Origin: an uncultured Actinomycetes bacterium | GTDB lineage: Bacteria > Actinomycetota > UBA4738 > HRBIN12 | Direction: 5' to 3' | NCBI GenBank assembly: GCA_963762075.1 | Contig: CAVXJC010000006.1 | Coordinates: forward strand, 33,788 to 97,787 | DNA: 64,000 nt | Shown: piece by piece, positions 1-33,137 of the stretch | Layout: the number at the start of each line of letters is the position of its first letter | Position numbering within the stretch: the first letter of the stretch is position 1 | Made by a program: the position numbers and the translations under genes | Notes under the pieces: model-generated | Told to the model about the DNA's origin: nothing | Seen by the model: the letters and a program-made list of their open reading frames with translations, nothing else | The model's database searches: none

Positions 1-763
1 CTCCCGCCTTCTCGATCAGCCGCCCGACGACTTGGTCGAGGTGCTCGTACGTTTCGCGGATCGCGTTCTCGTGACGAGGCGGATCGTCGGGTCCCGGATG
101 CTGCATGTGACGCCAGAAGAAGTGCTGGACCACATCGGACTCGGTGAAGACGACCATGAATGCTTCCCAGTCCCGCGTCTCCATAAGGTGCTCGGCGACT
201 GCAGCCCGCTTGTCGATCGACCGATGCAATCGATCCAGGCCTGCATCGATCTCCCCGGAGATCACGAAACCCGCGAGCGCCGGGTGCACGTAGTACTCGC
301 CACCGGCGACCTCCCGTATCTCGTGGCGAAGTTCGTCTGGGTGGGTGAACCCCGGCTCGTCGGCGCTCGGGCTGTCAACGCCCGAGACGAACACACCGTT
401 CACGGGCTCCGCGGGATAGCTGAGCGGCACGTTGAGAACGCCTACACGTTGGCCTTCCTCCGACAGGATGCGCCAGAACGCCTTGCCGTGGCGAAAGGAT
501 CCGTTGATGAACCGGTACTCGTAGGTCTCGGGCTTGTCCTCCGTGAACCAGTAGATGCCGTGCTTCCCTGGGTTGAGGCCGGTGACCATGGTGGACCAGG
601 CGGGGCCGCTATGCCTGTTCGGAACCGAGTTCAGTGTCCCCCACGCACCGTCGGCGAGGAAACGACCGATGTTCGGCAGTCGCTCCTCGGCCACCCATTT
701 CTCGACGAGGTGCGGCGTGGCCGCGTCCAGCCCGATGATCAAGACCTTCGATGGCCCGGTCAT
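1..763 (-). CDS. AlkP-superfamily type I phosphodiesterase/nucleotide pyrophosphatase family protein, paralog 3 (partial; 3' end beyond left window edge)
   Basis: Not listed in the ORF track because no stop falls inside the window. Minus-strand translation from the ATG at 763..761 gives MTGPSKVLIIGLDAATPHLVEKW...NSVPNRHSGPAWSTMVTGLNPGKHGIYWF. Motif order matches the two upstream paralogs. The ATG overlaps the TGA of the upstream gene (ATGA). Plus ORF 32..820 is its antisense shadow: low GC3 on plus, high GC3 on minus. Confidence 0.6.
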   Translation of the reverse strand, partial: MTGPSKVLIIGLDAATPHLVEKWVAEERLPNIGRFLADGAWGTLNSVPNRHSGPAWSTMVTGLNPGKHGIYWFTEDKPETYEYRFINGSFRHGKAFWRILSEEGQRVGVLNVPLSYPAEPVNGVFVSGVDSPSADEPGFTHPDELRHEIREVAGGEYYVHPALAGFVISGEIDAGLDRLHRSIDKRAAVAEHLMETRDWEAFMVVFTESDVVQHFFWRHMQHPGPDDPPRHENAIRETYEHLDQVVGRLIEKAG

Positions 764-2406
764 ACGTACCCCAGATCCCTCAAGTGTTCCGTCATCTGTT
801 CCTCTTCCTCCTGTGTGTAGGCCTCGTCTTCCGATCCATCGACGACCCGTGTTCCCGTGCGGCGGGGGTACCTGGCGGCGAACTCGGGCTCGAAGGCCTC
901 CGTGAGCACGCTTCCGTCCATGTCGTCCGGTAGTTCGAGGCCCAGCGCCCAGACGATGGTCGCCGGGACGTCGAGCAGGTGCGCTCTCCCCAGATCGTTC
1001 GCTTGCCGCACGGACCCGCCGTTCATGACGAGGATCCCGTCCGGACGATGGCTCGCACTGGAACGCTCTCGGCGACGCGTCGTGATCGTGGAGAGGCTCC
1101 GCTTGCCCCCCGCGTGTCCCGCTTCGCGTGACTCGTTCAACTCGAGGACGACGTCGGGGGCCGCCTCGGTGTGGATCCCGGAGTAGAGGTCCTCGCGACG
1201 ATGCGCCGCGCGGATGACAGGCTCGCCGGTGACGGGGTCTGTGAACTCCTTCGCCGCGTCGATCACCTGCTGGCGGATGGCCTCGAACTGGGCAACCGGG
1301 ACCGAGCCCAGCCGCTCGCGACCCGCCAGGTTGACGTTGACCCCCAGAACGTGATGGTCGATCGCGACGGCATACGCCCGGGATCTGGACCACTCGATCG
1401 AGCGCTCGTTCGCCTGGATCCGTTGCGCAGAGCTTCGTACAGCTTTCGGAGCGTGCTGCCACAGCCAATACTTCTTCGGGAGCACGTCCTTGCCCCACTC
1501 GAGGGCAGCTGCAGCGGGTCGGCGCCAAGGACGGCTCCCGGCCGCGACCTGCAGACCGAGCTCTTCGAGCCAGGCGTTCGCGTTGAACCTCAGCGGTGAC
1601 CGAGGACCAGTGCCGTGGTCCGACATCACGATCACGAGCCCGGGGTCGTCCACGGCTTCCAGCAGCTTTCCGAGCGACTCGTCCGCCCGTTCGTAGAAGT
1701 GATCGAGGAGCGTTCCGTCGCCTACCGGATAGGCCTCGAAGCCAGGTGCCGTCGGATCCGAGTATCTCCAGAACTTGTGAGCGACCCAGTCCGTGATGCT
1801 GTTGACATAACAGAAGAGATCGAACTCGTTCTCTCGGAGCATCTGCACGAGTGTCTCGGTCGAGCGCTCGAGGTAATGCTCGAAATTGTCGATCTGCGCT
1901 TCGACGCTGGCCACCATGCTCTTCAACGGAGCGAGCTTGACCATCGGGGGGAGGCCTTCACCGACCTCTTGCGGCATGGAGAAGTTCGTCTTGGGATCAG
2001 GGGTCGGGAAACCGGAGACCATGATCCCATTGACCGGCCACGGCGGATACGACATCGGTACACGAAAGGCGATCACTCTCAGGTCATTGCGAGAGGCGTG
2101 ATCGAAGATCGTTCTCCCCCGATACGCCCATGAGCCCATGAGTTCCGACCCGAGCGCCCCCCGCGTCATCGAACGGAAGTGGAAGACGCCGTGTTTGCCG
2201 GGGTTGACCCCCGTCATGAACGAAACCCATGCCGGCGCCGATAGTGGGGGGACCGTCGAGCGAAGACTCGCCCTCGTGCCCGTTGCCAGGAGGCCGGCCA
2301 GCGTGGGAAGCCGGCCTCGCTTCAACAGCGGATCGATGACATCGAACGTCGCACCATCGAGGCCGATGCACATCACCTTGGGGAAGGGGGGTTTCTCCTG
2401 TGCCAT
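760..2406 (-). CDS. AlkP-superfamily type I phosphodiesterase/nucleotide pyrophosphatase family protein, paralog 2
   Basis: Trimmed from ORF 760..2559 to the internal ATG (MAQEKPPFPKVMCIGLDGATFD). GLDGATFD, NPGKHG and MSDHG motifs of the AP/PF01663-like family are present. C-terminus ...LRDLGYV mirrors the upstream paralog (...LRALGYI). Confidence 0.8.
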   Translation of the reverse strand: MAQEKPPFPKVMCIGLDGATFDVIDPLLKRGRLPTLAGLLATGTRASLRSTVPPLSAPAWVSFMTGVNPGKHGVFHFRSMTRGALGSELMGSWAYRGRTIFDHASRNDLRVIAFRVPMSYPPWPVNGIMVSGFPTPDPKTNFSMPQEVGEGLPPMVKLAPLKSMVASVEAQIDNFEHYLERSTETLVQMLRENEFDLFCYVNSITDWVAHKFWRYSDPTAPGFEAYPVGDGTLLDHFYERADESLGKLLEAVDDPGLVIVMSDHGTGPRSPLRFNANAWLEELGLQVAAGSRPWRRPAAAALEWGKDVLPKKYWLWQHAPKAVRSSAQRIQANERSIEWSRSRAYAVAIDHHVLGVNVNLAGRERLGSVPVAQFEAIRQQVIDAAKEFTDPVTGEPVIRAAHRREDLYSGIHTEAAPDVVLELNESREAGHAGGKRSLSTITTRRRERSSASHRPDGILVMNGGSVRQANDLGRAHLLDVPATIVWALGLELPDDMDGSVLTEAFEPEFAARYPRRTGTRVVDGSEDEAYTQEEEEQMTEHLRDLGYV

Positions 2407-2414
2407 CCTGATTC

Positions 2415-4028
2415 CTATATGTAACCGAGGGCGCGCAGACGCTCCTCGATCTCCGCCGCCTCCTGGTCTGTATACGAGACCGATTGGTCGAGACCGTCCG
2501 GTCCGCCGGCGGTGTGAGAGATCGACCTTGACGCGTAGGGTTCGGCAAGCGCGTCCCACAGAACCCGCCCGTCCATGTCTTCGGGGATGGGTTCCCCAGC
2601 GAGGTGCAGGATGGTGGGTGCCAGATCCTGGAGGGCCGCTCCTTCGATCCGGCGTGCCCCGGCGAACTGAGGTCCTGACATCATCAACACGCCCAGGGGT
2701 CGATGCGCTCCGGACAGTCCGTGCATGAACCCCTTCGCGGACTGACGCGACAGCGCCCGCCCGAACCGGCCTTCATAACTGAGACCACCGACCGGTTCGT
2801 CGTAACGCCAGTCGATCTGGAGATCCGGCGCCTGATCGCTGTATGGCCCCGAGTAGATCTGCTTCGGCGTCCAGACTTGGTCGACCACCTGGCGCCCCGT
2901 CTCCGCATCCACCAACTCCGACAAGACCTCACGCAGCTCCTCCACGAGAGGCTCGTATTCCTCGGGCGACACCGTCCCATGCGGATCGCGGCCTTGAAGG
3001 TTGATCCACACACAGCTACGAGTGTTGTCGCCGAATGCGCGCGTGTTCTCCCAGTCGAGACCACCGAAGCGGACCTGGTAGCCGAACCTCCGATAGAGGC
3101 TGGGGAGACGACGCTTCAGGAACCCGCGCGCGTTCGGTCCGAGTCGCTTCGCCAGCCGGAGCGTCCGCCATCTCGCCGCCTCACCAGACGATGCTCCGCT
3201 GCGAAGATATCCGAGCTGGGCGAGGACGTCGTTCACGTGTTCGGCTGCAGGCTGTCGCCACCCCATGCCGTGGTCCGACATCACGATCACGCCGCAGTCC
3301 GGCCCCGCCTGTTCGAGGAACCTCGCAAGGGTGCTGTCCGCGAATTCGTAGACGGGTCGGAGACGCTCCTGCAAGGAGGCCTCCGGATCCCATACATGAT
3401 GTGCGGCCTGGTCGGTGGACTTGACCATGTACATGAACACGTCCCACTCGCGCGTCGCCATCAGGTGCAGGGCCGCGCGAACCCGGCTCTCCTCGGCCGC
3501 GAGCGCCGACTGGACCACACGCTCGTGGTGTCCCCCAGCTGCGTGATGGGCAACCGACGCATGCAAGATGTAGGGGCCGCACTCGCGTTCGAGCTCATCG
3601 ATCAGCCCATCCGGATGGCTGAACGACATGCTGCGCGTCGAAGGAGCGTCGAATCCCGCGACGAGCACACCGTTGACGTGCTCCGCAGGGTAGGTCATCG
3701 GGACGTTGACGATCGCGAGATCGTGACCAGCGTCCGATAGGAGCCGCCAAAGGCTCACGCCATGGCGATCCGCCGCAGTCACGAAGCGCACCTGCCCGGG
3801 GTCGTCCCCCTGCTCGGCGAACCAGAACACCCCGTGCTTCCCGGGGTTCTTTCCGGTCATGAACGTCGTCCACGCTGGGGCCGTGTTCATGTTCGGCACC
3901 GAACTCAGGTACCCCCACGCACCTTCATCGAGCAGGCGCGCGAAGGCCGGGAGCCGACCTTGCTCGGCCCACGGCAGAAGAAGGTCGAACGTCGCGCCAT
4001 CCAGCCCGAGGATCATCAGGCGATTCAT
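2415..4028 (-). CDS. AlkP-superfamily type I phosphodiesterase/nucleotide pyrophosphatase family protein, paralog 1
   Basis: 537-aa ORF. MNRLMILGLDGATFD...TGKNPGKHGVFWF...VIVMSDHGMG motifs are present. Start overlaps the Wzz-like stop (ATGA). Confidence 0.85.
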   Translation of the reverse strand: MNRLMILGLDGATFDLLLPWAEQGRLPAFARLLDEGAWGYLSSVPNMNTAPAWTTFMTGKNPGKHGVFWFAEQGDDPGQVRFVTAADRHGVSLWRLLSDAGHDLAIVNVPMTYPAEHVNGVLVAGFDAPSTRSMSFSHPDGLIDELERECGPYILHASVAHHAAGGHHERVVQSALAAEESRVRAALHLMATREWDVFMYMVKSTDQAAHHVWDPEASLQERLRPVYEFADSTLARFLEQAGPDCGVIVMSDHGMGWRQPAAEHVNDVLAQLGYLRSGASSGEAARWRTLRLAKRLGPNARGFLKRRLPSLYRRFGYQVRFGGLDWENTRAFGDNTRSCVWINLQGRDPHGTVSPEEYEPLVEELREVLSELVDAETGRQVVDQVWTPKQIYSGPYSDQAPDLQIDWRYDEPVGGLSYEGRFGRALSRQSAKGFMHGLSGAHRPLGVLMMSGPQFAGARRIEGAALQDLAPTILHLAGEPIPEDMDGRVLWDALAEPYASRSISHTAGGPDGLDQSVSYTDQEAAEIEERLRALGYI

Positions 4029-4996
4029 GGTGTCCGCACGCCCCTGACGTCAGCCCGACCTGTAAAGAGTTCGGTTTGCTCGTTCCGCGAACGCGATGAC
4101 TGCGCCTCGGCGCGACGTCGACGGGACCACCGTTCGATCCCGAGGATCGTGAGGAAACTCACGATGAGCCCGGCGAGAACGGCGAGGCCGACCGTGGAGA
4201 TGATGCGTGCGCGAACGGTATCGTCGGGGGCGCTCGGCGGGGAGATCATGATCGACGCTGTCCGCCGCTCCAAATATCGCTGGGTCGCGTCTTCGACCAA
4301 GGTTTGGATCGCGTCTCGGTTGCTGACAAGGACGCGGATCTGAGAGCTCGTGAGCGAATGCGCTGCTCGGAGGCGCTTCAGGCGTTCACGCAACTCCTGG
4401 ATCTCTGCCCTGTCGGCGATCGTAAAGGGCGCGGCCTGAAGACTGACCACACGCTCCCAGTACAAAGCGATCGAGCGCGCGTATTCACGACGATCTGCGC
4501 CCAAGGCGACGAGCTCCTGGGTCAGGTCCTGCACGTTCGACTCGACGTCGTCCTCCAGCCGCTGCACCTGCTCCAGGGCCAGCTCGTTCGATCGGTCGAT
4601 CAGGCTGGTGGATGCCTCCTCCACCGCCCTCTCGGCAACCGACCCAATCGATGCGGTCGCCGTGACGAGGTACACGTCTTCGCTGCGCTGCTGCACCGCC
4701 GCAACGGAATGGATCGCGGACGCCTGTGGTCCAAGGGTCGAACGAACCTGTTCCCCGAGGGCCTTGTTCGCGTACGCCCCCAGCTGGATCGCGATCGCGG
4801 AGACCTGAGTGGTCTTGGTGGCTACGGGGTCGCTGGCCGGGATGAGCACCTCAGCCTGGCTCACGTATTCGGAGGGAGCGGATAGCGCCAGAGGCAAGGC
4901 AACCCCCGCCGACACGACGACTGCAGCGAGTAGCGCCCACCACCTTCTCCGCACCAAGTCGAACACGCTCGAATTCTCGGACCGGCTCGATTTCAC
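4025..4996 (-). CDS. polysaccharide co-polymerase / Wzz-like chain-length determinant protein
   Basis: N-terminal TM helix followed by a YVSQAEVLI Wzz-type motif. Long coiled-coil middle. Pro-rich SPPSAPDD segment plus C-terminal TM helix. ATGA overlaps with both neighbours. Confidence 0.6.
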   Translation of the reverse strand: MKSSRSENSSVFDLVRRRWWALLAAVVVSAGVALPLALSAPSEYVSQAEVLIPASDPVATKTTQVSAIAIQLGAYANKALGEQVRSTLGPQASAIHSVAAVQQRSEDVYLVTATASIGSVAERAVEEASTSLIDRSNELALEQVQRLEDDVESNVQDLTQELVALGADRREYARSIALYWERVVSLQAAPFTIADRAEIQELRERLKRLRAAHSLTSSQIRVLVSNRDAIQTLVEDATQRYLERRTASIMISPPSAPDDTVRARIISTVGLAVLAGLIVSFLTILGIERWSRRRRAEAQSSRSRNEQTELFTGRADVRGVRTP

Positions 4997-5946
4997 GTCA
5001 CGTCGCCTACCTTTAGCCGAGTCTGCATTCGGCCGTACGTGACGGCTGCGAGCTTGACCCCTCCCAGAGCAAGGGTCTTCATGGTGTTGTTCGACCTGCT
5101 TCCTCCGTCTGGCGTCACCGCCAAGGTCGCCCGCATGCCCTCACGCAAGTAGGGCATCCTTCCGAACTCGCGGAGCTCCGCGAAGATCCCGACGTGCTCG
5201 TATACCGCGCCGATCCTTCTGTAGCGCCTGACGAGCTCCCGAATCCCCAGCTCGTGAACGTGCAGAACCGAGGCGCCGGGCACGTAGGCGATGTGGCAGC
5301 CGCTGTCGAGCAATCGTTTGGCGATACCGACATCCTCGAAGATGGCGAGCTCATCAGGGAATCGAAGTCGCCGCGCAACATCGGTGAGGAAGGCCGAGGT
5401 CACGTCAGAGAAGTGAAATGTTCGCAGGCCGAGCTCCCCTATCCGCGCCCTGCTCTTGAGCTCCGGCCGCTCGGGATAGAGATAGTCGTAGGTCGCCTGC
5501 CGTTCGGCGTTCGGGCGCGGCGCAACCTGGCGTCCATACGACGCCTGAGCTCGTCCGTCTGCCAGCGGCTCCACCAAGGCCTCGAGCCACGAGTCGCTCG
5601 TGGGGTGTGCGTCCGACGACAAGAACGCTACGACCGGCGTGGTCGCGAGGTCGACACCGTGGTTGCGCGTCCGGGCGTGACCGAACGAACGCGGATGCAC
5701 GGCCTCCCAATGATCGGCAGCCGCCCGAAGGGCACGGCTCGATCTCGATGTGGGGTCGGGACTCGAATCGATGACGATGATCGACAGGCCCGCTCCGTAC
5801 CGCTGAGATCGAACGATGTCCGCGGTCTCGATCTCCCAGTCTCCGGGGTTCTGGGTCAGGAGAACAACGCTCACATCAGGCCACTCCTGAACCGGCCTCT
5901 GCGCCTGGTTCCCGTCGCCGGCGGCCACCACCGCATCAAGCGACAC
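4993..5946 (-). CDS. family 2 glycosyltransferase (GT-A fold)
   Basis: VSVVLLTQNPG...IIVIDSSPD GT2 signature about 20 aa from the N-terminus. First gene of a five-gene minus-strand operon. Confidence 0.8.
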   Translation of the reverse strand: MSLDAVVAAGDGNQAQRPVQEWPDVSVVLLTQNPGDWEIETADIVRSQRYGAGLSIIVIDSSPDPTSRSSRALRAAADHWEAVHPRSFGHARTRNHGVDLATTPVVAFLSSDAHPTSDSWLEALVEPLADGRAQASYGRQVAPRPNAERQATYDYLYPERPELKSRARIGELGLRTFHFSDVTSAFLTDVARRLRFPDELAIFEDVGIAKRLLDSGCHIAYVPGASVLHVHELGIRELVRRYRRIGAVYEHVGIFAELREFGRMPYLREGMRATLAVTPDGGSRSNNTMKTLALGGVKLAAVTYGRMQTRLKVGDVT

Positions 5947-6244: not shown

Positions 6245-6974
6245 CTACGTAGGTATCTGTATGCGTCCGTCCGTCTGGGTCGCTCCGTCGAACAGATGGA
6301 TGGTGCCGTTCTTCAGCGCGACAGCTTCGAGCTTCGAGTGAACTTCCAGTTTGCGAAGGATGTTCTGGACGTGGGTTTCCACGGTCCGTTCGCTGATCAC
6401 TAACTCGTTCGCGATCGCGGCGTTTCGCATCCCCTTTGCGAGGAGCGCGAGGATCTCGCGCTCACGCTCGGTCAATCTAGCCGTCCTGCGGACGATCTCC
6501 TGCTTCGCTCGCCGCTTCCCGGAAACCCTCTGGATGAGCTTCGGAAGGCTCTGGAAATCGATCAGCTGCTCTCCGGTGGCCGCGACTTCGATCAGCTCGA
6601 AGAGCCGTTTGACCCGCTCGGCCTTTGGGACGATTGCGTCGGCGCCAGCTTCGATCGCCTCGAGGAGATGGTCATCACTGATGTTCCCGCTCATGACCAT
6701 CACCATGGTCGAAGGAGAAAGCGCCTTGATACGACGCGTCGCCTCAGTTGCGCTCGACCGCGAAGCAGCTTGCACGCCCATGAGGACCACGTGAGGCCGA
6801 TGCTTCTCGCAGATCTCAACGGCTTGACTCGGATCTTCGACCGGGTCGGCGATCAGACGGATGCCATCGGACAGCCTCATGACCGTGGCCAGGGCATCCG
6901 AGAGGAGTCCGCTTTCGTCGCAGATCAGGAGCGAGATCTTCTTGTCGTTCATGGCTTCGGTGGCCGAGCTCATG
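6245..6974 (-). CDS. LuxR/NarL-family response regulator with degenerate receiver (phospho-acceptor Asp replaced by Gly)
   Basis: Receiver-like N-terminus (LLICDES...HVVLMGVQ...VMVMSGN...AIVPK) plus C-terminal LuxR HTH (LTEREREILALLAKGMRNAAIANELVISERTVETHV). Start set at MSSATEAMNDKK, with a GGGAGG RBS about 8 nt upstream. Confidence 0.8.
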
Positions 6975-7207
6975 GCCCAGCCTCCCGAGGGTGTTCTCGT
7001 CGGCATGGGGCCTGCCAGTTCAGCTCGGGTCGCCATCCATGGGGGAAGGGGAACCTCATGCAGAAAGCTTACCCCAGGGTAGGTAAAAAGTCCTAGGCGA
7101 TTTTCCGTACTCGTAGTTAGTAGGTGAGAGAGGCAGACCCCTCAAGCGGAGGGTGCCACCCTCGACCATTCCGGGCACCGCCTCTGAGGCCAGCTCCGCG
7201 TGGCACC

Positions 7208-18079: not shown

Positions 18080-18147
18080 GAAGGTTCGAGGACCACCGGT
18101 TCCGTGACGAGGTCGAGGAATCGGTCGCAGATGCCGATACGCCCGGT

Positions 18148-25039: not shown

Positions 25040-25112
25040 GCGAAAAGGATATCCGGGTGAGCCCGGCGACCAGCGGCCCGATAGCAGCAACCAGGGGACC
25101 GAACTGCGGAGG

Positions 25113-25361
25113 TCAGGATGATCGCTCCCTCATCTCACCCGTCATCATCGCGAGCCTCGGTAAGACGATTGGCAGCCGCCAGGTGCTGCGCCGGGTCGAG
25201 GAGGAGCAATCGGTCTCGAGGATTCGGCAGCCGAACATCTCCCTCGCGAGCTCCACGGCTACGACGCGAACCGCGTCAGGATCCAAGAGATGCTCGGGAT
25301 CAGCGGGCATCGACCACCCTTGGACCTCATCGAGGACGTAGTCGGGTGCGTGGATCCCCAT
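25113..25361 (-). CDS. hypothetical small protein (82 aa), C-terminus ...RERSS
   Basis: ATG preceded by a GAGAGG RBS about 7 nt upstream. GC3 about 75%. Sits between the cyclase and flippase genes on the same strand. Confidence 0.35.
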   Translation of the reverse strand: MGIHAPDYVLDEVQGWSMPADPEHLLDPDAVRVVAVELAREMFGCRILETDCSSSTRRSTWRLPIVLPRLAMMTGEMRERSS

Positions 25362-25629
25362 TTCTCATCCTCTCGCGCAGGCTGCGGGGTTCGCAGCTAT
25401 ACGGATGCGGTCCTCGACACCGATACCGGGTCATCGGATCCCAAGCCTCACCCTGGTCTCGAGTGACACCGGCGTTGAGGACCGTGCTGCCGCCGCCGTC
25501 AACCATCAACAGGAGGACGCCAGCGCCCTCGAATGAGGCCTGACTTCAGCGGTAAGCCCCTCACCGCGTGGGTCTCAGGGTTCTCCACCGGCGCATCTTC
25601 ACCCGCGACCTCCGAAGCAGCGCCCCACG

Positions 25630-27099
25630 TCACGCCCTTCGGCCGCGTAAGCGAGCGCGAACAGCGTCTAAGACGACGCGATCGTCGGCGTCGATCCCGA
25701 GAAGCGTCGTGGCCGTCACGTAGACAACGACGGTCGCCGCAGTGCCAACCAGGAGCGATGCGAATCCGCCTCCCATCAGGGCGCGGATCGAGAGGGCGAC
25801 GCCGCCCGCGATCACGCCCGCGGCCAGGCCTTTCACGAGACCTAGGTTGAAGGCAAACATCTTCAGGAACACCCATACCTGCGTCATGCGTGCGATGGTC
25901 AACAGGGCGATCGTCGACGCCCAAGCGATCGCCGCGCCGGACATCCCCAATCGAGGAATCAGCACGATGTTCAGTCCGACGTTCAACACCACCGCGGCGA
26001 GGTAGTTCGCCATCTGAACGACGGGCCGCCCGGACATCGTGAGCATGTATCCGCAGGGGCCGCTCGCGGCACTGAACAGCCAGGCGACGGTCATGATCTG
26101 CGTTACCACGACGCCCGATTCGAACGCCGGCCCGAAGATGGCGAGCAGCTCACGCGGGAAAACCAGGAGGACGACGAACCCGGGCAGTGACAGCCGGACG
26201 ACCCAGCTCGTGATGAGGGCGAAGGTCCTCTTGAGGAGCTCGTACCGGCCTCGCCGATAGAGGTCGGCGATCCGCGGCGCGAACGAGTTCGTCACCGGCG
26301 CAACGAATATGGTCGCCAACAGCGTGAGGCGCGTCGCGACCTGATACACGCCCACGTCGGCCGCGGAGCTGTAGATGCCGAGCAGGATCGTATCGGCCCA
26401 CAGCAGGCCGTTGCTGGCGATGTTCGACAGCCAGCTCGGCGCTGAGAACGTTAGGAGCTCGCGCACGTAGTAGCGAGGGCGTGCCTCGATCCGACCGACC
26501 AGGCGTTTCAACGCGATAGAGGCCAGGACGGCGGACGTCGTGTTCGTCACGACGAGGGCGATCATGACGCCCGTCAACCCCCATCCGGCCCAGATCATCG
26601 ACAGCGTGAGGACGATGCGGAAGGCCGGCTCGAACACGAGGTTGATGAGCGCGTACGGCTTCATCGTCTTGAAGCCCCGAGTCGCGCCGAGCGCCGCGTC
26701 CGTGTAGGCGGTCGCCGGCAGCGCGACCGCGACGAACCGCAGAACCGAGATCAGCCGCAGTTCGTCGTGGAACGCATGCACGGCGAGCCAGGGCGCGAGC
26801 GCAAAGAGCGCGATGCCCATGATGGCTGCGATCGCGACCGTCGTCGTGAGGCCGAGCCGGATCGTCCCACGCAGCGCAGCATCGTCGCCATCGGCCCTGT
26901 GCACGACCACGTACCGCGTCAGCGTGTCGGTGGCAGCAGCAGATGCGACGAGGCTCAGGAACGCGAGGATCGCGAACGACTGGAAATACAGACCGGCGAC
27001 ATCGGCCCCGAGCAGCCGCGCGATGACCAGCGTGATCGCGAAACGCAGCGCCTGATTGAAGAGGGCGCCGCCGAAGTTGGTGCCGCCTTGGCGCGCCAT
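25630..27099 (-). CDS. polysaccharide biosynthesis protein / Wzx-like MOP-superfamily flippase
   Basis: Twelve-plus TM helices typical of MOP/oligosaccharide flippases. Start set at MARQGGTNF (27099). The upstream in-frame acidic stretch from 27207 is the alternative. Confidence 0.7.
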   Translation of the reverse strand: MARQGGTNFGGALFNQALRFAITLVIARLLGADVAGLYFQSFAILAFLSLVASAAATDTLTRYVVVHRADGDDAALRGTIRLGLTTTVAIAAIMGIALFALAPWLAVHAFHDELRLISVLRFVAVALPATAYTDAALGATRGFKTMKPYALINLVFEPAFRIVLTLSMIWAGWGLTGVMIALVVTNTTSAVLASIALKRLVGRIEARPRYYVRELLTFSAPSWLSNIASNGLLWADTILLGIYSSAADVGVYQVATRLTLLATIFVAPVTNSFAPRIADLYRRGRYELLKRTFALITSWVVRLSLPGFVVLLVFPRELLAIFGPAFESGVVVTQIMTVAWLFSAASGPCGYMLTMSGRPVVQMANYLAAVVLNVGLNIVLIPRLGMSGAAIAWASTIALLTIARMTQVWVFLKMFAFNLGLVKGLAAGVIAGGVALSIRALMGGGFASLLVGTAATVVVYVTATTLLGIDADDRVVLDAVRARLRGRRA

Positions 27100-27296
27100 C
27101 CCCAAGACCTCTGCTCGACGACCGTCGTCGCCGAGACGATCCCCCCGCTGGTCGCCCGGCGCGCTGGCCACGGGTCCTTCGACCTCGGGGTCCTCTTTGC
27201 CCGACACGCCTCAGGCGCCGCGCTCGAACGCCGAACGATCGGCGCGGCGATGCCCTCGGCACAGGCGGTGATCGCCGAGACGGAGCCGATGGTCGC

Positions 27297-28430
27297 TCAT
27301 CGACAGACGGGCGCCGCGGCGCGGTAGAGGGCGTCGAGCGGCACCGGATAGGGGTGGACGATCTCGTGGGAGGGCTTCTCCGAGAGCGCCTCCGACAGCA
27401 GCCGTGCCTCGAGCTCCTGAGCGCCCTCGAGGAGATCGCTCGAGCGATCCGGGAATGCGAACCGGAACCATTGGTACGCATCGAGGAGCTTGCGTCGTTC
27501 GTACGTCAGCGACGCAACCATGCGCCGTGCGATCAGCTCCGGATCGGCGGGAAGCACTGCAACGCCGTCGCCGCCCACCGTTGCCAGGAAGACGTGATCG
27601 AGAGCGACGTTGTCGTGACGGACTGCTTCGCCGAACAGGTCCTCGGGCGACACCCGGACCTGCCCGAGCAATGAGACGCCGCCTTCAAGACTGAGCTGAT
27701 GGAGCGCGCTCGCGATGACGCCGCGCGGAGTCCGTCCATCGGCGAGGGAGTTGTACACCCGTCGATACCAGCGAAGCAGGAGCAGCCGCTGGCGAGCGCT
27801 CCGCGACACCCCGCTCCAGTATCTCGGCAGGGATCGGAGATGCCAGTCCCAGACATGGACGACGCCGCCGAGGCCGAGGAGTTCGCCTCCATCTGCCCGC
27901 ACGATCGTCCACTCGTTCGCGACGTAGGCGGCGCCCTCGGCCATGAAGGCGAGAAGCATCTCGGTCTTCCCGCCCTTCTCCCACCCGGCGACCAGGACCC
28001 CCTTGCCTTCATAGACGAAGGCGGAGGAATGAAGGAGCACATATCCTCTTCGCAGGAGACGCATCGCGATTATGGGCGTGAGCAGCGGGAGCGAGGTGAC
28101 GCCGCGCTCACAGACGATCTCGCAGCGGTCCCCGAGCACCTCGAGGTCGATCCGGATCCGGTGACCGACCGGATCCAGCAGGTAGAAATGCTCGTCGTCG
28201 TAAGCCGCATCGTTCGAACCCAGGAACCGTAGGCGACCCTCTGTCGGGAGGGAGTCGGTGAATCGGATTGAGATATCGGGCTCGGCTCCCGTCTCGCCGG
28301 TCGAAGGTCCGAGGCGACGGCGTAGCTGCCTCCGCATGGCGCGAGGAGCGGGCCGCATGCTGATCTTCACGAGCCCGTGCACGTTGTGGACCAGCGTGCC
28401 GTGTGGGGGTCGGAAAGGCTGATGCGTCAT
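27297..28430 (-). CDS. HPr-kinase/phosphorylase C-domain-like P-loop kinase (HprK-related kinase)
   Basis: Start at MTHQPF. LLHSSAFVYEGKGVLVAGWEKGGKTEMLLAFMAEGAAYVANEWTIV matches the HprK Walker-A region (GxxGxGKSE). Start ATG overlaps the TGA of the IS C-terminal fragment (ATGA). Confidence 0.6.
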   Translation of the reverse strand: MTHQPFRPPHGTLVHNVHGLVKISMRPAPRAMRRQLRRRLGPSTGETGAEPDISIRFTDSLPTEGRLRFLGSNDAAYDDEHFYLLDPVGHRIRIDLEVLGDRCEIVCERGVTSLPLLTPIIAMRLLRRGYVLLHSSAFVYEGKGVLVAGWEKGGKTEMLLAFMAEGAAYVANEWTIVRADGGELLGLGGVVHVWDWHLRSLPRYWSGVSRSARQRLLLLRWYRRVYNSLADGRTPRGVIASALHQLSLEGGVSLLGQVRVSPEDLFGEAVRHDNVALDHVFLATVGGDGVAVLPADPELIARRMVASLTYERRKLLDAYQWFRFAFPDRSSDLLEGAQELEARLLSEALSEKPSHEIVHPYPVPLDALYRAAAPVCR

Positions 28431-28830
28431 GCCGCGGCCCCGTGGTACTCGCTTATCAGCCCGCCCAGCACCTTCTGACGTCTGGTCCGCCCCATCGGAA
28501 CGGGGATCGGGAAGACGCCCACCGTGTCCCGCGGGGCCAGATCGATCCCACGGTGCGCTCGGTGCGCGTCGTAATGGCGCTCGCAGACCTGAAGCAACCT
28601 GAGCAGGTGTCTTCGCCCTAACATGACCAACTTCCGTGGGTAGGCCGCCGGGCGAAGGCGGCGAGGAGCATCCGGTCACAACGACGAAGCTTAGGCCGAC
28701 CGGCGTTTCGCTTCATCACCGCCAGCTGATGGCGAAGCACAAGGATCTCGGCCTCACGCTCGCGAGCATCGCCCTCAGGCGGGACGTGAAGGACAAGACG
28801 AAGGATGAGGTAGAGAACCGCGAGAAGCAC
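28427..28830 (-). mobile_element. IS transposase relic with internal deletion (N-terminal 70 aa and C-terminal 67 aa fragments in different frames; DDE core missing)
   Basis: N fragment MLLAVLYLILRLVLHV...EILVLRHQLAVMKRNAGRPKLRRCDRMLLAAFARR. C fragment LLRLLQVCERHYDAHRAHRGIDLAP...RRQKVLGGLISEYHGAAA. Both are hallmark ends of an actinobacterial rve-type transposase family. The fragments are juxtaposed near 28618-28630. Confidence 0.55.
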
Positions 28831-29314
28831 CGCGCGATGCTACTTCGTCGCACCTCCAGATAGCGAATCGGGAGTTTGCCACCCCTACAGTCGACGCGGA
28901 CGGCACCACCCGCGAAGTCACCCGCGACCACGACCTCATCCGCAGGGGGTGACAGCACCGCCGGAGGTGACTCAAGATGGAAATCGGGAGCCCGGCAGGA
29001 TATTTGCCTGTTTCTAGCCTCAACGGCAGCGTGAGGAGGGGAGCCGATCTGAGCCAGCCGACCATCCGACGGGCGGAGGCACACGATCCGAAGCGAGAAC
29101 ATCGCACCAAGAGCCATCGTTCGCGTGGACTTCTTGGCGTGGAGGACGGGTGTCCCCGGATCGATATCCAACGCCGCGGATCTCACCATCGAAGCCGGGA
29201 CAGTCTCGACCCGCGTCAGCGACGATGGATAGACTCGAGGCATGGAGGAGTTCAGCGTGACCGTCGGCTGAGCGGTCCCATGCTCCGTCATTTCCCCCGA
29301 CTCGAAACCCCCCG

Positions 29315-30977
29315 ATGACCGACCGCCGCATCGATGAGCCGTCGATCTTTCCGTTCTTCGTGGGCGCCGGTCGTTCGGGTACCACGCTCGTGCGTGCGAT
29401 CTTCGACGCTCATCCGGACATGGCCGTGCCGGATGAGTCCAATTTCGTGCCGGTCCTGGCGCGCCTGCGCGGCCGGTACGAGGGATCCGACAGCTTCGCC
29501 GCTCCGCTTCTCCTGGACGATCTCCTCGAGCAGAGACGATTTCGACGGTGGCGGCTCTCGAGGGACGAGGTCCAGATGGCGTTCGACGACGCCCCGCCCG
29601 CGGACTACGCGGAGGCAGTCCGGCTGTTGTTCGCGCTCTACGCGCAGCGCCACGGGAAGACTCGCTACGGCGACAAGACACCGAGCTACGTGCTGCACAT
29701 CCCTCTCCTCGCCGACCTGTTTCCGGAGTCTCGATTCGTCCACGTCATCAGGGACGGGCGCGACGTTGCGCTATCGCTCCTCGATGTGGACTTCGGTCCG
29801 AGAAGCGTCGGGGCGGCGGCACAGCTGTGGAAGGCGCACGTAACGGCTGGGCGCGATGCCGGGCGTCGACTGGGTGCTGGCCGGTATCGAGAGGTTCGCT
29901 ACGAGGATCTCCTGGACGACCCCGAGACCGCGGTCAAGTCGATCTGCATGTTCATCGACCTGCCCTTCGAGCCCGAGATGCTTCGATACTTCGAACGGGC
30001 CGCGAACATCACATCGCCGAGCGCGTGGAGTCGTCGGCACATCGTCCTTCCCCCGACGAAGGGCCTACGCGACTGGAGACGCCAGATGCCGAAGAAGGAG
30101 GTCGCCCTCTTCGAGGAGCTCGCCGGCGATCTCCTGATGGAGGTCGGCTACGAGAGAGAGATGGGTGCACCCCCGGCCTCGGTGCGATTGAGGGCACGTA
30201 CCGCCGAATGGAGCAGGCGCATGCGGCGCCTGGCTCTGAAGTCGAGAAGGTCGCGAAAGGGAGGCGCGCGGGCGAAGAAGCCAGGGCCTCCGTCTTTCCT
30301 CCTCCTCAACTCGCCGCATGACCGCCAGGAGGTGATGTCCTTTCTCATCGCCAAGGAGGCGGCGAACGAACCGGATGTGGCGGCATTTCGAGAGCGCAGC
30401 CTAGGAAATCAGCTTCTCACGCTCGGTGAGGTCGCGACCTGGATGTCGAAGCAAGACATGGTTGATGGAGAGGGGCCACGAGCGGACATCCTTGAGTACA
30501 TGGGTACGGATCCTTGGCCGCTGCGGCACCCAGCTACGGAGGGGGGAGTGCTCGACGCCCTGCGCTCGCTGAGCTTGAGGCTCGCACGCATCTACGGGTG
30601 GCAGCCCTTTCAGGCAAGCACGTTCGTTCTCACCGGCTTCCCGCCCTTGATCGCAGCGATTCGATCGCAGGCCGTCGGCGGGATTCCCTTGAGCTCCACG
30701 ACCCGGATCGTGCTGGACGTCGACCCGGCCGCGACTCCGCGCGACGTGATGCAGCAGTACAGTCGCGTTCGGGACCGCCTCACCGCTGCGAGATCTCAAG
30801 CCCGTCAGCGAGAAGGACCTCAAGCTCGCGGAGTTCGTCGCGGTGCGTTCCACCATGGATCGGCACCACTTGATCGGGTTGTGGAACGATCAGTACCCGG
30901 ACTGGGTGTATGACGATCCAGACGCGTTTCACCACGACGCAGTGCTCGCGCGTCGACGAATATTGGATCCTTGGTAG
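29315..30977 (+). CDS. sulfotransferase-family protein with about 240-aa uncharacterized C-terminal domain (frameshift near 30790 in the tail)
   Basis: 5'-PSB-like motif FFVGAGRSGTTLV and 3'-PB-like RDGRDVALS. After about residue 490 the listed frame turns Arg-rich. The +1 frame reads RDLKPVSEKDLKLAEFVAVRSTMDRHHLIGLWNDQYPDWVYDDPDAFHHDAVLARRRILDPW, ending in a stop at 30975..30977. Confidence 0.65.
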
Positions 30978-31083
30978 CACCACGGATCCGGAATCCCGCT
31001 CAGTGCAATGCTGGGCAGCTTCGCAGCGCTCACGAAGCAAGGAGCCCCGGCCGCTTCCTCCTGTCACCTCTCGCGCGGCAGCC

Positions 31084-31778
31084 TCTAGGGACCGATCTGC
31101 ACGGTGATCTCGTCCAGATCGCCATGGAAGACGTCGTCGGTCGTTGTCTTCGCGCCCACCATGGCCCCAGCGCTGTTGTCGATGGTCCCGGCGATCGCCG
31201 TCTTCTCTGAACTGGCGCCCGTCCACCACCGCGATCACCTGGGTGGGCGTCTTGATGCATTGCAGCCGGTGAGCCGCGCCGTCCATGATGTCGGGCTTGG
31301 CGGTCTTCGAGACCGAGGCGACGTCTCCTCTGAAGGTGCACTTCAGCTTTCCTACGGCACCAAGTCTCTTGAAGTTCTTGATTTCCATTTTCCAATCGCC
31401 GCCGGCCGATGAGCCGAGACCCTTTCGCACGACGTCGTAGCTGTCGTCTTGGATCGGCCCCACGAGCCTGACCCAGGCTGTGACGGTGATGTCCTGGTCG
31501 AAGGGATCGAGGCTGTCGTTATCGGTGGGAACCGTGACGTTGGAGTCGATCCCGTTGAAGCCATATGCCGTGCCGGACGCGATCCCTGGTTTGCCGAGCG
31601 TCACCGTTGAGCTGATCTGGCCGTGGTTTCCGTGACCCGATGTGTCCGTCATGGTCGAGCCGGAGGTCTCGTCCATGTGCCACTCTGCCCGCAGATCCGC
31701 CAGCGCTCCCGTCGCGGTCGCGACAACGAACAGCACAAGCGGAATGCCCAGTCCAAGTGTCCGCTTGAGACTACGCAC
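31084..31778 (-). pseudogene. secreted LamG-like (concanavalin-A-like lectin/glucanase, PF13385-like) domain protein, frameshifted near 31205
   Basis: GTG start with an AGGGAGG RBS. Signal peptide VRSLKRTLGLGIPLVLFVVATATGALA. LamG_3-like body through ...VIAVVDGRQF. The native C-terminus ...SSEKTAIAGTIDNSAGAMVGAKTTTDDVFHGDLDEITVQIGP plus stop is in another frame. The listed frame runs into Arg-rich junk. Confidence 0.55.
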
Positions 31779-32000: not shown

Positions 32001-33137
32001 CTACATCTCCCGCAGGGACTGGGCGAGCCGGTCGACATCGGCTTCGTCGTTGAACGCGTGCAAGGAGATCCTGAGTCCATCTCCTCGACTCCCGCACACG
32101 ATCCGGTGATCGGATGCGAGGCGTGCGGCCGTGATGTCAGGGCGGTGTCGTGCGTGCCGCAACGACACGATGTGGGGCGAAGCTCCCGGATCGCCGAGTT
32201 GCCGGAACGGGCGCCAGCCGAGCCCTTCTACCTGGGCGACGAGTCGCGCCGCCAGGTTCGTGGCGTGTTGCCGGATGCGGCCGAAGCCGGCCGACGACAA
32301 GATCGCGATGGACGACTCGAGTCCGACCACGGACGCGTACGACATCGTCGAGAGCTCGAAGCGCCGTGCGTCGTTGGCCAGTCTGAGCGTTCGAGCGTCG
32401 AACGCGAAGGGGTTGTTCGTCCCCTTCCAGCCGACCAGCTGAGGGAGACGATCGCAGAAGTGTGGAGCGACCGCGAGTAGTGCCACGCCGCCGTGGCTCG
32501 ACAGCCATTTGTAGCCGCTCGTGACCACTGCGTCCGCACCCCATCGCTTCATATCGACAGGGCTAGCTCCGGCGATCTGCGTCGCGTCGACCACCACACG
32601 AGCGCCGGCCTCATGAGCCCGCGCCGCTACGCGCCCGACCTCGATCTGAGAGCCGGTCGCGTACTGAACGGCGCCGAACGTGACCACTGACGTCGTCAGA
32701 TCGATCGCGTCCTCGAGATCGTGCGTGAGGTCTCGATCCGCGCGATCCTCGACGAAGCGGAGCTCGATCTCACGACGCTCGGCGGCCGCCAGCCACGGGT
32801 AGGTCACGCTAGGGAAATCCGTTGACACCAAGACGACGGTCCCGCGATCCGCTTCGAGCAGCGACGCGATCTGACCGAGGCCTTCACTCGCACTCCCGAC
32901 GACGGCGACGGCATCGGGGGTGGTCCCGAGCAGCTCGGCCCCGGCCGAGCGGACGCTATCGAGGGTCTCGGCCTCCTGTTGATCGCTGAGGTAGAGGTTC
33001 CCGTGCTGAGCCGTCCGCTCCATGAAGGCGTGCATCGCCTCGACGGCCGGGATCGGTACCAGGCCTAGGGCGGCCTGGTTGAGATACGTACATCGCTCGA
33101 GGGCGGCGTAGAAGTCGCGAGGGACGAGTGAGGACAT
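32001..33137 (-). CDS. aminotransferase class V-fold PLP-dependent enzyme (cysteine desulfurase / isopenicillin-N epimerase-like)
   Basis: Start at MSSLVPRDFYAAL with a GGGAGG RBS. SGYKWLSSHGGVALL carries the PLP lysine. Confidence 0.75.
   Translation of the reverse strand: MSSLVPRDFYAALERCTYLNQAALGLVPIPAVEAMHAFMERTAQHGNLYLSDQQEAETLDSVRSAGAELLGTTPDAVAVVGSASEGLGQIASLLEADRGTVVLVSTDFPSVTYPWLAAAERREIELRFVEDRADRDLTHDLEDAIDLTTSVVTFGAVQYATGSQIEVGRVAARAHEAGARVVVDATQIAGASPVDMKRWGADAVVTSGYKWLSSHGGVALLAVAPHFCDRLPQLVGWKGTNNPFAFDARTLRLANDARRFELSTMSYASVVGLESSIAILSSAGFGRIRQHATNLAARLVAQVEGLGWRPFRQLGDPGASPHIVSLRHARHRPDITAARLASDHRIVCGSRGDGLRISLHAFNDEADVDRLAQSLREM

Follow-up and report, generated by a model that had tools for sequence, protein, structure and literature searches.

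In the window, which is the whole 64-kb stretch of DNA analyzed here, the genes encoding a flippase, a kinase-like protein, a sulfotransferase and a secreted LamG protein are probably (at roughly 60%) what rearrangement has left of a cell-surface polysaccharide cluster of the Wzx/Wzy-dependent type. The product would be an anionic glycan, presumably sulfated and probably phosphorylated. These four genes recur together among related bacteria, always within a larger cell-surface polysaccharide cluster; their association is far beyond chance and the combination recurs on independent contigs. The genes that the earlier note had named (kinase, sulfotransferase, flippase, LamG, IS relic, tRNA-Tyr) were all recovered at or near the places where it had put them. 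The island that it had proposed turned out to be no self-contained unit but a rearranged piece of a larger cluster, and the lower-GC segments that it had pointed out deviate only slightly (0.62–0.69 within 25–32 kb, against about 0.66 overall).

Gene Content of the Region

The features of the window are as follows.

24..5946, minus strand: second, distant putative cluster fragment, the GT2/phosphodiesterase block (Pfam; DNA identity to L127)
86-319, minus strand: small conserved ORF of this block
760-2559 and 2415-4028, minus strand: two type I phosphodiesterase/NPP-family proteins of this block (Pfam)
4025-4996, minus strand: uncharacterised 323-aa protein of this block
4993-5946, minus strand: GT2 of this block (Pfam)
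6245..7036, minus strand: LuxR-type response regulator (Pfam Response_reg and GerE; matches from L087 and L090)
25113..25361, minus strand: orphan ORF of 82 aa, flanked by the flippase block and an adenylate-cyclase/AAA_16 gene
25558..25788, plus strand: relic of an NAD-dependent sugar epimerase/dehydratase, last ~79 codons (tblastn with the L087 epimerase; gene order in L086 and L087)
25630..27207, minus strand: Wzx-type MOP/PST flippase, 525 aa, intact (Pfam; DNA identity; dN/dS)
27297..28430, minus strand: HprK/PEPCK-fold P-loop kinase-like protein, 377 aa, intact
28427..28830, minus strand: relic of an rve-type (integrase core domain) IS transposase (ORF fragments; tblastn)
29315..30977, plus strand: Sulfotransfer_3 enzyme fused to a ~250-aa integrase-associated-type domain (Pfam; two-frame tblastn)
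31085..31778, minus strand: secreted LamG (Laminin_G_3) protein, ~231 aa (three-frame translation; match of the repaired protein to Laminin_G_3)
33543-33626, minus strand: tRNA-Tyr

The flippase was assigned by Pfam to Polysacc_synt (E 2.9e-20), with further matches to Polysacc_synt_3 and MatE. Its DNA is 91–92% identical to that of the relatives L086 and L087, and its dN/dS against L087 is 0.22, the value for the kinase being 0.32; both genes are under purifying selection. In L086 and L087, an epimerase gene converges on the flippase gene and overlaps its 3′ end, while the window retains a stretch matching residues 267–345 of the L087 epimerase (62% identity, E 2e-17) and the remainder of the gene is missing.

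In the sulfotransferase, the Sulfotransfer_3 domain (E 9.4e-36) occupies residues ~14–220 and is followed by a conserved extra domain. The motifs GAGRSGTT and RDGRD, recognized by eye in the translation, resemble PAPS-binding motifs; no PAPS-synthesis gene was found in the annotated parts of the window. An extra G at 30800 puts the last ~60 residues out of frame and is the only reason why the called ORF stops at 30913. At full length the protein would have 553 aa, like intact cluster mates at 90% identity or more, and it is matched in two frames by a 558-aa protein of L005 (tblastn). The extra G is the sole coding indel relative to L126 (96.9% identical) and L127, and the catalytic domain stays in frame. 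The C-terminal domain that had been described as novel and 240 aa long is real, at ~250 aa, but it is not rare, being present in ~2,700 representative clusters; its stand-alone relatives adjoin tyrosine integrases. Among solved structures, protein-tyrosine sulfotransferases and the CurM sulfotransferase come closest in sequence to the sulfotransferase domain, and a non-sugar acceptor is therefore possible.

The LamG protein has a signal-peptide-like N-terminus by inspection and contains a 1-nt insertion near 31208. Thus, the two genes reported as frameshifted each carry one inserted nucleotide as sequenced. Once repaired, the LamG protein scores 31.8 bits against Laminin_G_3 (cut-off 27.6; E 1.9e-7). 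By position it corresponds to the LamG genes coming after the fusion sulfotransferase in L126 and L127, with only 33–34% identity to them against 92–97% for the flanking DNA. Both insertions may be assembly errors, and the long-read sister contig (L086/L127) contains several other split genes.

Relatives With the Fuller Cluster and Rearrangement of the Window

Near-identical relatives carry the full cluster, with rml-type sugar genes, glycosyltransferases, Wzy, APH-type kinases and a second sulfotransferase. In L086 and L087, whose kinase is at least 90% identical to that of the window, the kinase gene precedes the flippase gene, followed by convergent RmlD, epimerase and RmlC genes, a sulfotransferase gene leading into an APH gene, and GT2 and GT4 genes. 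L127 lies on the same 29.7-kb contig as L086 and brings the 553-aa fusion sulfotransferase, LamG, GT2 and phosphodiesterase genes, so that the kinase, the flippase, the fusion sulfotransferase and LamG all stand on one contig of a close relative. In L005, L089 and L090, the fusion sulfotransferase gene converges on a flippase gene preceded by the kinase gene, and these loci also hold Wzy, GT4, GT2, APH and a second flippase/sulfotransferase pair. The co-occurrence of kinase, sulfotransferase and flippase that the earlier note wished to see in other genomes is thus present in L005, L089, L090 and the L086/L127 contig.

The window combines two blocks of differing ancestry: positions 25630-28402 are 91–92% identical to L086/L087, and positions 28912-31011 are 92–97% identical to L126/L127. 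The junction between them (28403-28911) contains the IS relic, two ORF fragments corresponding to the N- and C-termini of one transposase whose catalytic core is deleted. The fragments match (tblastn) a locus that is present in multiple copies on Streptomyces replicons (101 places in 44 records) and is annotated as an "integrase core domain-containing protein". The first ~9 codons of the kinase gene come from this junction. An IS-mediated event probably brought the kinase-flippase and sulfotransferase-LamG blocks together and removed the sugar-nucleotide, APH and glycosyltransferase genes that lie between or beside these blocks in relatives.

The GT2/phosphodiesterase block is 20 kb distant from the flippase-LamG region. 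Its positions 24-5889 show 70–75% DNA identity to L127 9066-14883, which in the relative is separated from the sulfotransferase/LamG pair of that contig by 3 kb, and this similarity points to a second fragment of the same ancestral cluster. Also, the LuxR-type regulator of the window is a paralogue or an orthologue of the regulator directly upstream of the kinase gene in L087 and L090. No priming transferase, Wzy or GT4 was found within the 64-kb window. With its blocks fused, genes lost and the GT2/phosphodiesterase block 20 kb apart from the rest, the pathway of this genome is either distributed among several loci or partly lost to decay.

The HprK/PEPCK-Fold Kinase Family

The uncharacterised kinase family comprises 110 protein clusters from 335 species genomes of many phyla, and no Pfam or NCBIfam model describes it. 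All 110 clusters are ~375 aa long, with an invariant Walker A motif (GWxKGGK-T/S), an invariant His134 and an acidic residue where HprK has its catalytic Asp. A longer ORF extending to 28679 was rejected: the start at 28430 is fixed by an identical 377-aa protein (P0001) and by the ~375-aa homologues.

A confident structure model predicts the PEPCK/HprK fold and, together with the Walker A motif and His134, agrees with the earlier assignment to HprK-like P-loop kinases. By sequence, the protein resembles HprK, a protein kinase, and not PEPCK. It falls below the Pfam and NCBIfam thresholds for HPr-kinase families: HprK_rel_B, the kind of family proposed for a check, scores 25 bits, far under its cut-off of 200. 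There is also a weak NCBIfam match to the phosphonate-monophosphate kinase FomB (E 1.9e-4).

In GTDB genomes, the family sits in Wzx/Wzy polysaccharide loci, with polysaccharide-type neighbors in 66 of 78 kinase loci. These neighbors include dTMPK-like proteins (48 loci), MOP flippases (40), deacetylases (33), MT+APH fusions (29), GT2 (28), Wzy_C (27), GT4 (25) and Bac_transf (17). The gene nearest to the kinase encodes an MT+APH fusion in 21 loci, a dTMPK-like protein in 20, an uncharacterised 215-aa protein in 16 and a flippase in 7; in the clade of the window, the kinase gene adjoins or overlaps that of the flippase. Glycosyltransferases, Wzy, Wzx and other kinases are thus the usual partners of the family. 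Linkage to a sulfotransferase is a feature of a subclade, detected for just 6 of 86 sequences (85 loci and the window; home-made profile). In Nocardioides cynanchi, a sulfotransferase gene and the kinase gene have 4 nt in common, and LamG, GT2, GT4 and Bac_transf are close by.

Proposed Pathway and Alternative Explanations

Judging by what these gene families are known to do, and by their arrangement in the close relatives, we infer the following steps. In an intact version, glycosyltransferases would assemble a repeat unit on polyprenyl-phosphate from nucleotide sugars including a dTDP-6-deoxyhexose. This unit would be decorated in the cytoplasm by PAPS-dependent sulfotransferases, APH-type kinases and the HprK/PEPCK-fold kinase, the latter presumably phosphorylating the lipid-linked sugar unit or one of its substituents. 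The Wzx flippase would then transfer the decorated unit over the membrane and Wzy would polymerize it, and the secreted LamG protein may bind or process the product outside the cell. However, the kinase might act on a protein or a small molecule instead of the glycan.

With no priming transferase, Wzy or GT4 in the window, and with the sulfotransferase and LamG genes frameshifted as sequenced, the set is possibly inactive here. It is conceivable, though we consider it doubtful, that the whole locus has lost its function, its genes decaying since an IS-mediated event broke it up, and that it yields no product in its source organism. The IS relic, the truncated epimerase, the two insertions and the disappearance of the relatives' rml, APH, GT4 and Wzy genes from this site all suggest decay, but the kinase and flippase are intact and constrained (dN/dS 0.22–0.32), the GT2/phosphodiesterase block is kept, the catalytic domain of the sulfotransferase remains readable, and the insertions may be assembly errors, the sister long-read contig itself showing several other split genes. 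A rather unlikely explanation is that the HprK/PEPCK-fold protein is a small-molecule kinase that makes or activates a substituent (a hydroxy-acid, a phosphonate or a PEP-derived group) attached later to the glycan, without itself phosphorylating the glycan. This would accord with the FomB match and with the PEP mutase, VlpB-like 2-hydroxyacid dehydrogenase and ATP-grasp ligase genes that adjoin the kinase in 15–17 loci, a phosphonolactate branch having been described (PMC8942020); yet most kinase loci, including those of the window's clade, have no PEP mutase, and the resemblance is to HprK.

The kinase might instead be a regulatory P-loop protein kinase controlling the flippase or the polymerase, as a functional analogue of the Wzc-type BY-kinases of other Wzx/Wzy systems. 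HprK/P and lasso-peptide kinases do phosphorylate Ser on proteins or peptides (PMC8498205), the gene adjoins or overlaps the flippase gene in the window's clade, and Wzz, BY-kinase and Wza are absent from the 25 families with the largest numbers of matching members (114 proteins from 8 representative loci). We regard this role as improbable: three other kinds of gene are nearest to the kinase more often than the flippase, and no autophosphorylation site or partner is recognizable. HPr-kinase homologues and sulfotransferase genes are also known from lasso clusters (PMC8498205), and the similarity to tyrosine sulfotransferases and the Ser-Ser terminus (...RERSS) of the 82-aa ORF, once suggested as a kinase substrate, would fit a RiPP-type tailoring set acting on this or another small ORF, like that of phosphorylated lasso peptides. 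Such a set is very improbable, as neither the window nor the conserved neighbor families contain a lasso cyclase or protease or a PqqD-type gene, and the HprK_rel_B score is far under its cut-off. The 82-aa ORF forms a singleton cluster, hits neither Pfam nor NCBIfam and lacks homologues in the 87 loci searched; it lies outside the blocks common to relatives and is probably not part of the system. With polysaccharide neighborhoods and no RiPP machinery, a decorated glycan is favored among the exported products suggested previously (glycan, lipid or peptide).

Comparison With Known Systems

The combination had been considered to match no described system, but it belongs to a Wzx/Wzy polysaccharide cluster and shares its logic with wps-1 of Actinoplanes missouriensis, the closest described system (2026, PMC13390465). 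The wps-1 cluster is Wzx/Wzy-dependent, is predicted to make a sulfated EPS, and encodes two sulfotransferases, a methyltransferase, a kinase-like protein and glycosyltransferases (PMC13390465). The relatives L086/L127, L089 and L005 resemble it in gene content, with two sulfotransferases, an APH-type kinase, Wzx, Wzy and glycosyltransferases, and sulfation is predicted in both. Unlike the window, wps-1 is described with neither an HprK/PEPCK-fold kinase, a term that the paper does not use, nor a sulfotransferase joined to an integrase-associated domain (PMC13390465), and its Wzz and GH26 were not seen here.

The synechan cluster is cyanobacterial, has different regulators and is not known to have an HprK-like kinase. 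As a second precedent, this cluster (xss) of Synechocystis PCC 6803 shares a Wzx/Wzy-type pathway and dedicated sulfotransferases leading to a sulfated extracellular polysaccharide (PMC8205485).

Compared with HPr kinase/phosphorylase and its lasso homologues (PadeK type; PMC8498205), whose family thresholds it fails, the window kinase has a PEPCK-like N-terminal domain and overall architecture, and it lies in a polysaccharide-synthesis neighborhood with no PTS or lasso-maturase context. It differs also from ATP-dependent PEP carboxykinase, with 9–13% identity, no sequence-family match, ~150 fewer residues and a context other than gluconeogenesis. A precedent for a kinase that phosphorylates a polyprenol-linked glycan is WbdD of E. 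coli O9a, a kinase and methyltransferase capping the O-antigen (PMC3482155), although WbdD acts in an ABC-transporter pathway, unlike the Wzx/Wzy loci considered here. In 29 loci, the HprK-like gene is flanked by MT+APH fusions, which combine the same two domains as WbdD, although phmmer gave no PDB match for the MT+APH protein; the window has no MT+APH gene.

Gene Content of the Region

The features between 22.9 and 33.6 kb of the window were established from the ORF listing and from domain searches:

22886-25090, minus strand: zinc-ribbon, adenylate cyclase and AAA_16 regulator, 734 aa
25113-25361, minus strand: 82-aa ORF (orf82)
25630-27207, minus strand: Wzx-type MOP flippase (Polysacc_synt, Polysacc_synt_3, MatE)
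27297-28430, minus strand: P-loop kinase-like protein, hereafter the kinase
28427-28830, minus strand: two short ORF fragments (IS relic)
from 29315, plus strand: Sulfotransfer_3 protein with a long C-terminal extension, hereafter the fusion sulfotransferase
31085-31778, minus strand, start at 31778: LamG protein
32001-33185, minus strand: class-V aminotransferase
33543-33626, minus strand: tRNA-Tyr

The genes of the modification island proposed in the earlier note were all confirmed as real by these two approaches. The remainder of the window is composed of housekeeping genes (nuo genes, G6PD, aminotransferases, an ABC transporter).

A New Kinase-Like Family in the PEPCK/HprK Superfamily

Homologs of the kinase form 110 clusters of about 375 aa, and none of them bears a functional name. 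His134 and the Walker-A motif GWxKGGK(155)T are invariant in the family. Residues H134, G149-W-x-K-G-G-K155-T-E157 and [DN]-E173-W align with HG...GxSGxGKSE...ADD of HprK, so that by alignment the kinase possesses the HprK-type P-loop, conserved His, Lys, Ser/Thr, Glu and acidic catalytic residue. Searched against the PDB, the family profile matched HPr kinases only (best E 4.6e-6), over a stretch of about 55 residues at the P-loop that includes the HprK positions for His, Lys, Ser/Thr, Glu and the catalytic Asp. At E <= 0.01, the window kinase was matched neither by Hpr_kinase_C (PF07475) nor by any other Pfam model, and a precomputed PF07475 match exists in only 2 of the 110 homologous clusters. 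The scores for HprK-related kinase B (TIGR04355, 25 bits against an NCBIfam cut-off of 200) and FomB (NF000361, 20.6 bits against 400) were both below threshold, with matches limited to about 60 residues around the P-loop.

The AlphaFold model of the kinase is confident (pLDDT 91.6). The protein has the fold of the PEPCK-like superfamily, which unites PEPCK and the C-terminal domain of HprK, including its nucleotide-binding domain, and it superposes over 279 residues on PEPCK vs. about 130-150 on HprK/P. It has no HprK-type N-terminal domain, and none of the ORFs annotated in the window is a PTS gene. As profile matches are confined to the P-loop region, NCBIfam scores are sub-threshold, no Pfam model matches and the structural model is confident, the kinase is a new family inside the PEPCK/HprK superfamily and outside HprK/P proper.

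Kinase Neighborhoods Across Genomes

In a scan of one genome per species, relatives of the kinase were encoded in 335 genomes from at least eight phyla, including Chloroflexota, Actinomycetota, Planctomycetota, Gemmatimonadota, Acidobacteriota, Bacteroidota and Proteobacteria. All ORFs of 78 loci were clustered and the recurrent families annotated (see table). Neighbors of polysaccharide type were present at 66 of the 78 loci, in a strikingly conserved gene order, which supports the reading of the region as one of glycan modification.

Table. Recurrent gene families at 78 kinase loci.
dTMP-kinase-like P-loop protein: 48 of 78 loci
MOP flippase: 40 of 78
ATP-grasp: 35 of 78
Polysaccharide deacetylase: 33 of 78
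Methyltransferase+APH fusion (MT+APH): 29 of 78
GT2: 28 of 78
Wzy_C: 27 of 78
GT4: 25 of 78
Bac_transf: 17 of 78
2-hydroxyacid dehydrogenase: 17 of 78
NTP_transf_5+dTMPK: 15 of 78
PEP mutase: 15 of 78

A strongly syntenic cluster of about 20 kb with the HprK-like gene was observed across phyla (comparison loci L015, L016, L018, L037 at 235-19065, L039, L053 and others). Its order is GT4, GT2, a protein of 508 aa without assigned function, Wzy_C, MOP flippase, MT+APH and HprK-like, then a second such protein (215 aa), MT+APH, GT4, dTMPK-like, ATP-grasp and polysaccharide deacetylase; for several of these proteins, neither Pfam nor NCBIfam offers a model. A search of the MT+APH protein against the PDB for homology to WbdD gave no match.

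At 15-17 loci, genes for a dTMPK-like protein, a VlpB-like 2-hydroxyacid dehydrogenase, PEP mutase and an ATP-grasp ligase come after the kinase. Such loci include L081, where these genes lie within 3 kb downstream of the kinase, as well as L029, L017, L058, L063, L066, L070 and L076, and they suggest a glycan decoration of the phosphonolactate type (cf. PMC8942020). A further link between flippase and kinase was noted in locus L003, where a 908-aa protein (11142-13868) combines a Polysacc_synt flippase with an APH-type kinase domain; its gene adjoins the HprK-like one and that of a 1103-aa Metallophos/LamG/cadherin protein.

The Sulfotransferase and Its Recruited Domain

The fusion sulfotransferase is a clear member of Sulfotransfer_3 (PF13469, 124.5 bits vs. 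a cut-off of 27). The AF2 model of its extra domain, built from a 6-sequence alignment, was poor (pLDDT 52.8). Stretches resembling the PAPS-binding motifs (GAGRSGTT and RDGRD) were recognized in the translation by inspection. By sequence, the nearest solved relatives of the catalytic domain are tyrosylprotein sulfotransferases and the CurM sulfotransferase, and NoeE is its top match in NCBIfam; the sequence does not single out an acceptor.

No Pfam model exists for the C-terminal extra domain. A word-indexed search returned few relatives, while an exhaustive profile search retrieved 2,698 representative clusters containing the domain, with 312 reaching E <= 1e-30. In most of them the protein measures about 350 aa and has the domain at its C-terminal end, and one member has an apparent N-terminal CHC2 primase-type zinc finger, seen by inspection. 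Among the approximately 24 metagenome loci with enough flanking DNA, the stand-alone gene was directly upstream of, or divergent from, a tyrosine integrase gene in 16, with Prim-Pol/AAA_25 or DUF3987 genes nearby. The two genes are neighbors (for example L092:5977-8158, L107:5923-8266, L106, L108, L116 and L118, among others) and often overlap. The stand-alone relatives are an unnamed protein family of integrative elements; the scanned viral contigs contained no relatives of the domain. The fusion to a sulfotransferase is kept in at least eight clusters, every one of them in polysaccharide loci, and this conservation indicates a recruited mobile-element domain and not an artifact. The recruitment of a domain otherwise found beside tyrosine integrases calls for an explanation.

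A Fragmented Copy of an Ancestral Cluster

In the close relatives L086 and L087, whose kinase is at least 90% identical, the kinase gene precedes the flippase, followed by convergent RmlD/epimerase/RmlC genes, a 319-aa sulfotransferase, an APH kinase, GT2 and GT4. On the remaining half of the L086 contig (L127) are the 553-aa fusion sulfotransferase and, convergent with it, a LamG gene, along with GT2, genes without assigned function and a phosphodiesterase. In the more distant Actinomycetota loci L005, L089 and L090 (kinase 57-63% identical), the fusion sulfotransferase converges on the flippase, itself downstream of the kinase; these contigs add Wzy, GT4, GT2, APH and a second flippase/sulfotransferase pair. 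The association of kinase, sulfotransferase and flippase pointed out in the earlier note recurs in L005, L089 and L090 and in L086/L127. In Nocardioides cynanchi, a sulfotransferase gene and the kinase gene share a 4-nt overlap, and LamG, GT2, GT4 and a priming transferase are close by.

DNA comparison with these relatives divides the window into blocks. The flippase and kinase block (25630-28402) is 91-92% identical to L086/L087, and its edges coincide exactly with the flippase stop codon on one side and, on the other, with a point 28 nt within the kinase; the last 79 codons of an epimerase persist as a relic at 25558-25788. The sulfotransferase block (28912-31011) is 97% identical to L126 and 92% to L127, and between the two blocks lies the IS relic (28403-28911). 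Also, the segment 24-5889, with GT2, a 323-aa protein without assigned function and two phosphodiesterases, is 70-75% identical to L127 9066-14883, which in that relative is only 3 kb from the sulfotransferase. It follows from this block structure that the window holds one ancestral cluster in fragmented form. Purifying selection still acts on the kinase and the flippase (dN/dS 0.32 and 0.22, respectively).

The two short ORFs of the IS relic correspond to the two termini of an "integrase core domain" transposase that occurs in multiple copies in Streptomyces replicons. No more than about 70 N-terminal and about 65 C-terminal codons are retained, with no intact DDE transposase, and no inverted repeats were found there; 28427-28830 is thus a relic and not an element. 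The fragments, too short for Pfam, gave no matches to it, and the rve-type protein had no match in the PDB. At 28427-28430, the kinase ATG overlaps the TGA stop of the relic ORF (ATGA). As the first nine or so codons of the kinase are unlike those of its relatives, its N-terminus, and probably its promoter, derive from the IS junction.

The two frameshifted genes reported earlier were traced to single-base insertions, at 30800 in the sulfotransferase and near 31208 in LamG. The extra G at 30800 is the sole indel of the coding region with respect to two relatives 92-97% identical, and cluster mates at 90% identity or more are intact (553 aa). It removes the last 60 residues, the most conserved of the extra domain, and leaves the catalytic domain in frame. 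As sequenced, the Laminin_G_3 domain of LamG is split by the extra base; removal of this base restores the spacing seen in homologs, and only then is PF13385 matched (31.8 bits vs. 27.6). Sulfotransferase homology to L126/L127 ends 34 nt past the stop codon, and LamG (31085-31778) is only 33-34% identical to its positional counterparts in L126 (6242-6535) and L127 (5815-6363), whereas the adjacent sulfotransferase DNA is 92-97% identical, which points to cassette replacement or strong diversification. Assembly error is plausible, since the sister long-read contig (L086/L127) shows several different split genes. Suspected nuoG frameshifts at 46.5-49 kb, considered as a control for such errors, proved by inspection to be the separate genes nuoA, nuoB, nuoC and a polyprenyl synthase, and so give no evidence there of widespread indel errors.

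Predicted Pathway and Comparison with Known Systems

The best-supported reading of the region is a Wzx/Wzy-type pathway for a predicted anionic surface glycan. The window supplies the Wzx flippase of the PST/MOP type (25630-27207). The only glycosyltransferase found in it is the GT2 at 4993-5946, and neither Wzy nor Bac_transf was seen; Wzy, the priming transferase and glycosyltransferases are all present in the relatives and across the kinase family. Sulfotransferases and kinases in the cytoplasm would decorate the repeat unit before the neighboring Wzx flips it. As to PAPS supply, the annotated parts of the window showed neither an APS-kinase gene nor one for sulfate adenylyltransferase. Activity of the pathway in the source organism is uncertain, because its locus is broken up, frameshifts interrupt two of the genes as sequenced, and assembly error is plausible.

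The substrate of the kinase would probably be the lipid-linked sugar unit or one of its substituents. Alternatively, the kinase could be a small-molecule kinase, PEPCK- or FomB-like, as the phosphonate branch of its family would support, or a regulatory protein kinase taking the place of the missing Wzc. The tailoring of a peptide, considered in the earlier note, has a precedent in the HPr-kinase homologs which act as lasso-peptide tailoring enzymes (PMC8498205), but their genomic context differs from that of the window kinase. No lasso cyclase, leader protease, RRE/PqqD or precursor with a C-terminal Ser was found in the window or in conserved neighbor families, where maturases of lasso peptides and other RiPPs were also absent. 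The C-terminal Ser of orf82 had been suggested as a kinase substrate; this ORF is an unconserved singleton and an orphan, and the peptide reading is essentially excluded.

Returning to the Wzx/Wzy pathway, the kinase family may, tentatively, mark an unrecognized and widespread class of it. The repeat unit would there be heavily phospho-decorated by HprK-like, WbdD-like MT+APH and dTMPK-like kinases together with an ATP-grasp ligase and a deacetylase, with phosphonate in one branch and sulfate in the actinobacterial one. The HprK-like enzyme would then be the first member of its superfamily acting on a lipid-linked glycan, or a substitute for a Wzc-type regulator. Within the searchable literature, no paper was found to link HPr-kinase homologs with Wzx/Wzy loci, and the HprK/PEPCK-fold P-loop kinase is an enzyme type without prior tie to glycan assembly.

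Outside cyanobacteria, few bacteria are considered to make sulfated polysaccharides. For actinomycetes, suggestions of them have only begun to appear, in a 2026 study (PMC13390465). The locus of the window and its relatives carry this predicted picture over to uncultured Actinomycetota. The closest described system is wps-1 of Actinoplanes missouriensis, with Wzx/Wzy, two sulfotransferases, a methyltransferase and a kinase-like protein, whose product is predicted to be a sulfated EPS, as yet unproven (PMC13390465). With this similar gene combination, the view that the island matches no described system is not supported. Synechan comes next (PMC8205485), and WbdD (PMC3482155) is the next comparison for glycan phosphorylation.

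The window itself, a broken-up copy of doubtful activity, is of smaller biological weight, and the value lies mainly in the odd sulfotransferase fusion and in the kinase family. Large, phylogenetically broad, strongly syntenic and wholly uncharacterized, this family is a defined target for glycobiologists, with culturable carriers in Nocardioides cynanchi, Geodermatophilus spp. and Amnibacterium sp.

Other Features of the Window

The adenylate cyclase/AAA_16 protein has a partial match to the NCBIfam "TOMM system kinase/cyclase fusion protein" (227 bits vs. a cut-off of 706). As it neighbors the kinase in no relative locus, its gene beside the flippase block looks like a product of rearrangement. 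The tRNA-Tyr was rejected as an integration site, with no att-like tRNA repeat and no meaningful direct or inverted repeats between 20 and 36 kb; a short run of CCGA/ACGA-type tetranucleotide repeats (33500-33545) lies directly 3' of it. At the left edge, an operon-like run on the minus strand (24-7036) comprises a LuxR response regulator, GT2, the 323-aa protein, two type I phosphodiesterase/NPP proteins and a small conserved ORF. As it extends beyond this edge, further genes of the glycan cluster may sit just outside the window. The nuo-type operon at 39095-47944 apparently lacks D, E, F and G between C and H, its order being nuoA, nuoB, nuoC, then nuoH-I-J-K-L-M-N; nuoA-C and nuoI-K were called by eye from translations, with nuoH, J, L, M and N assigned by Pfam.
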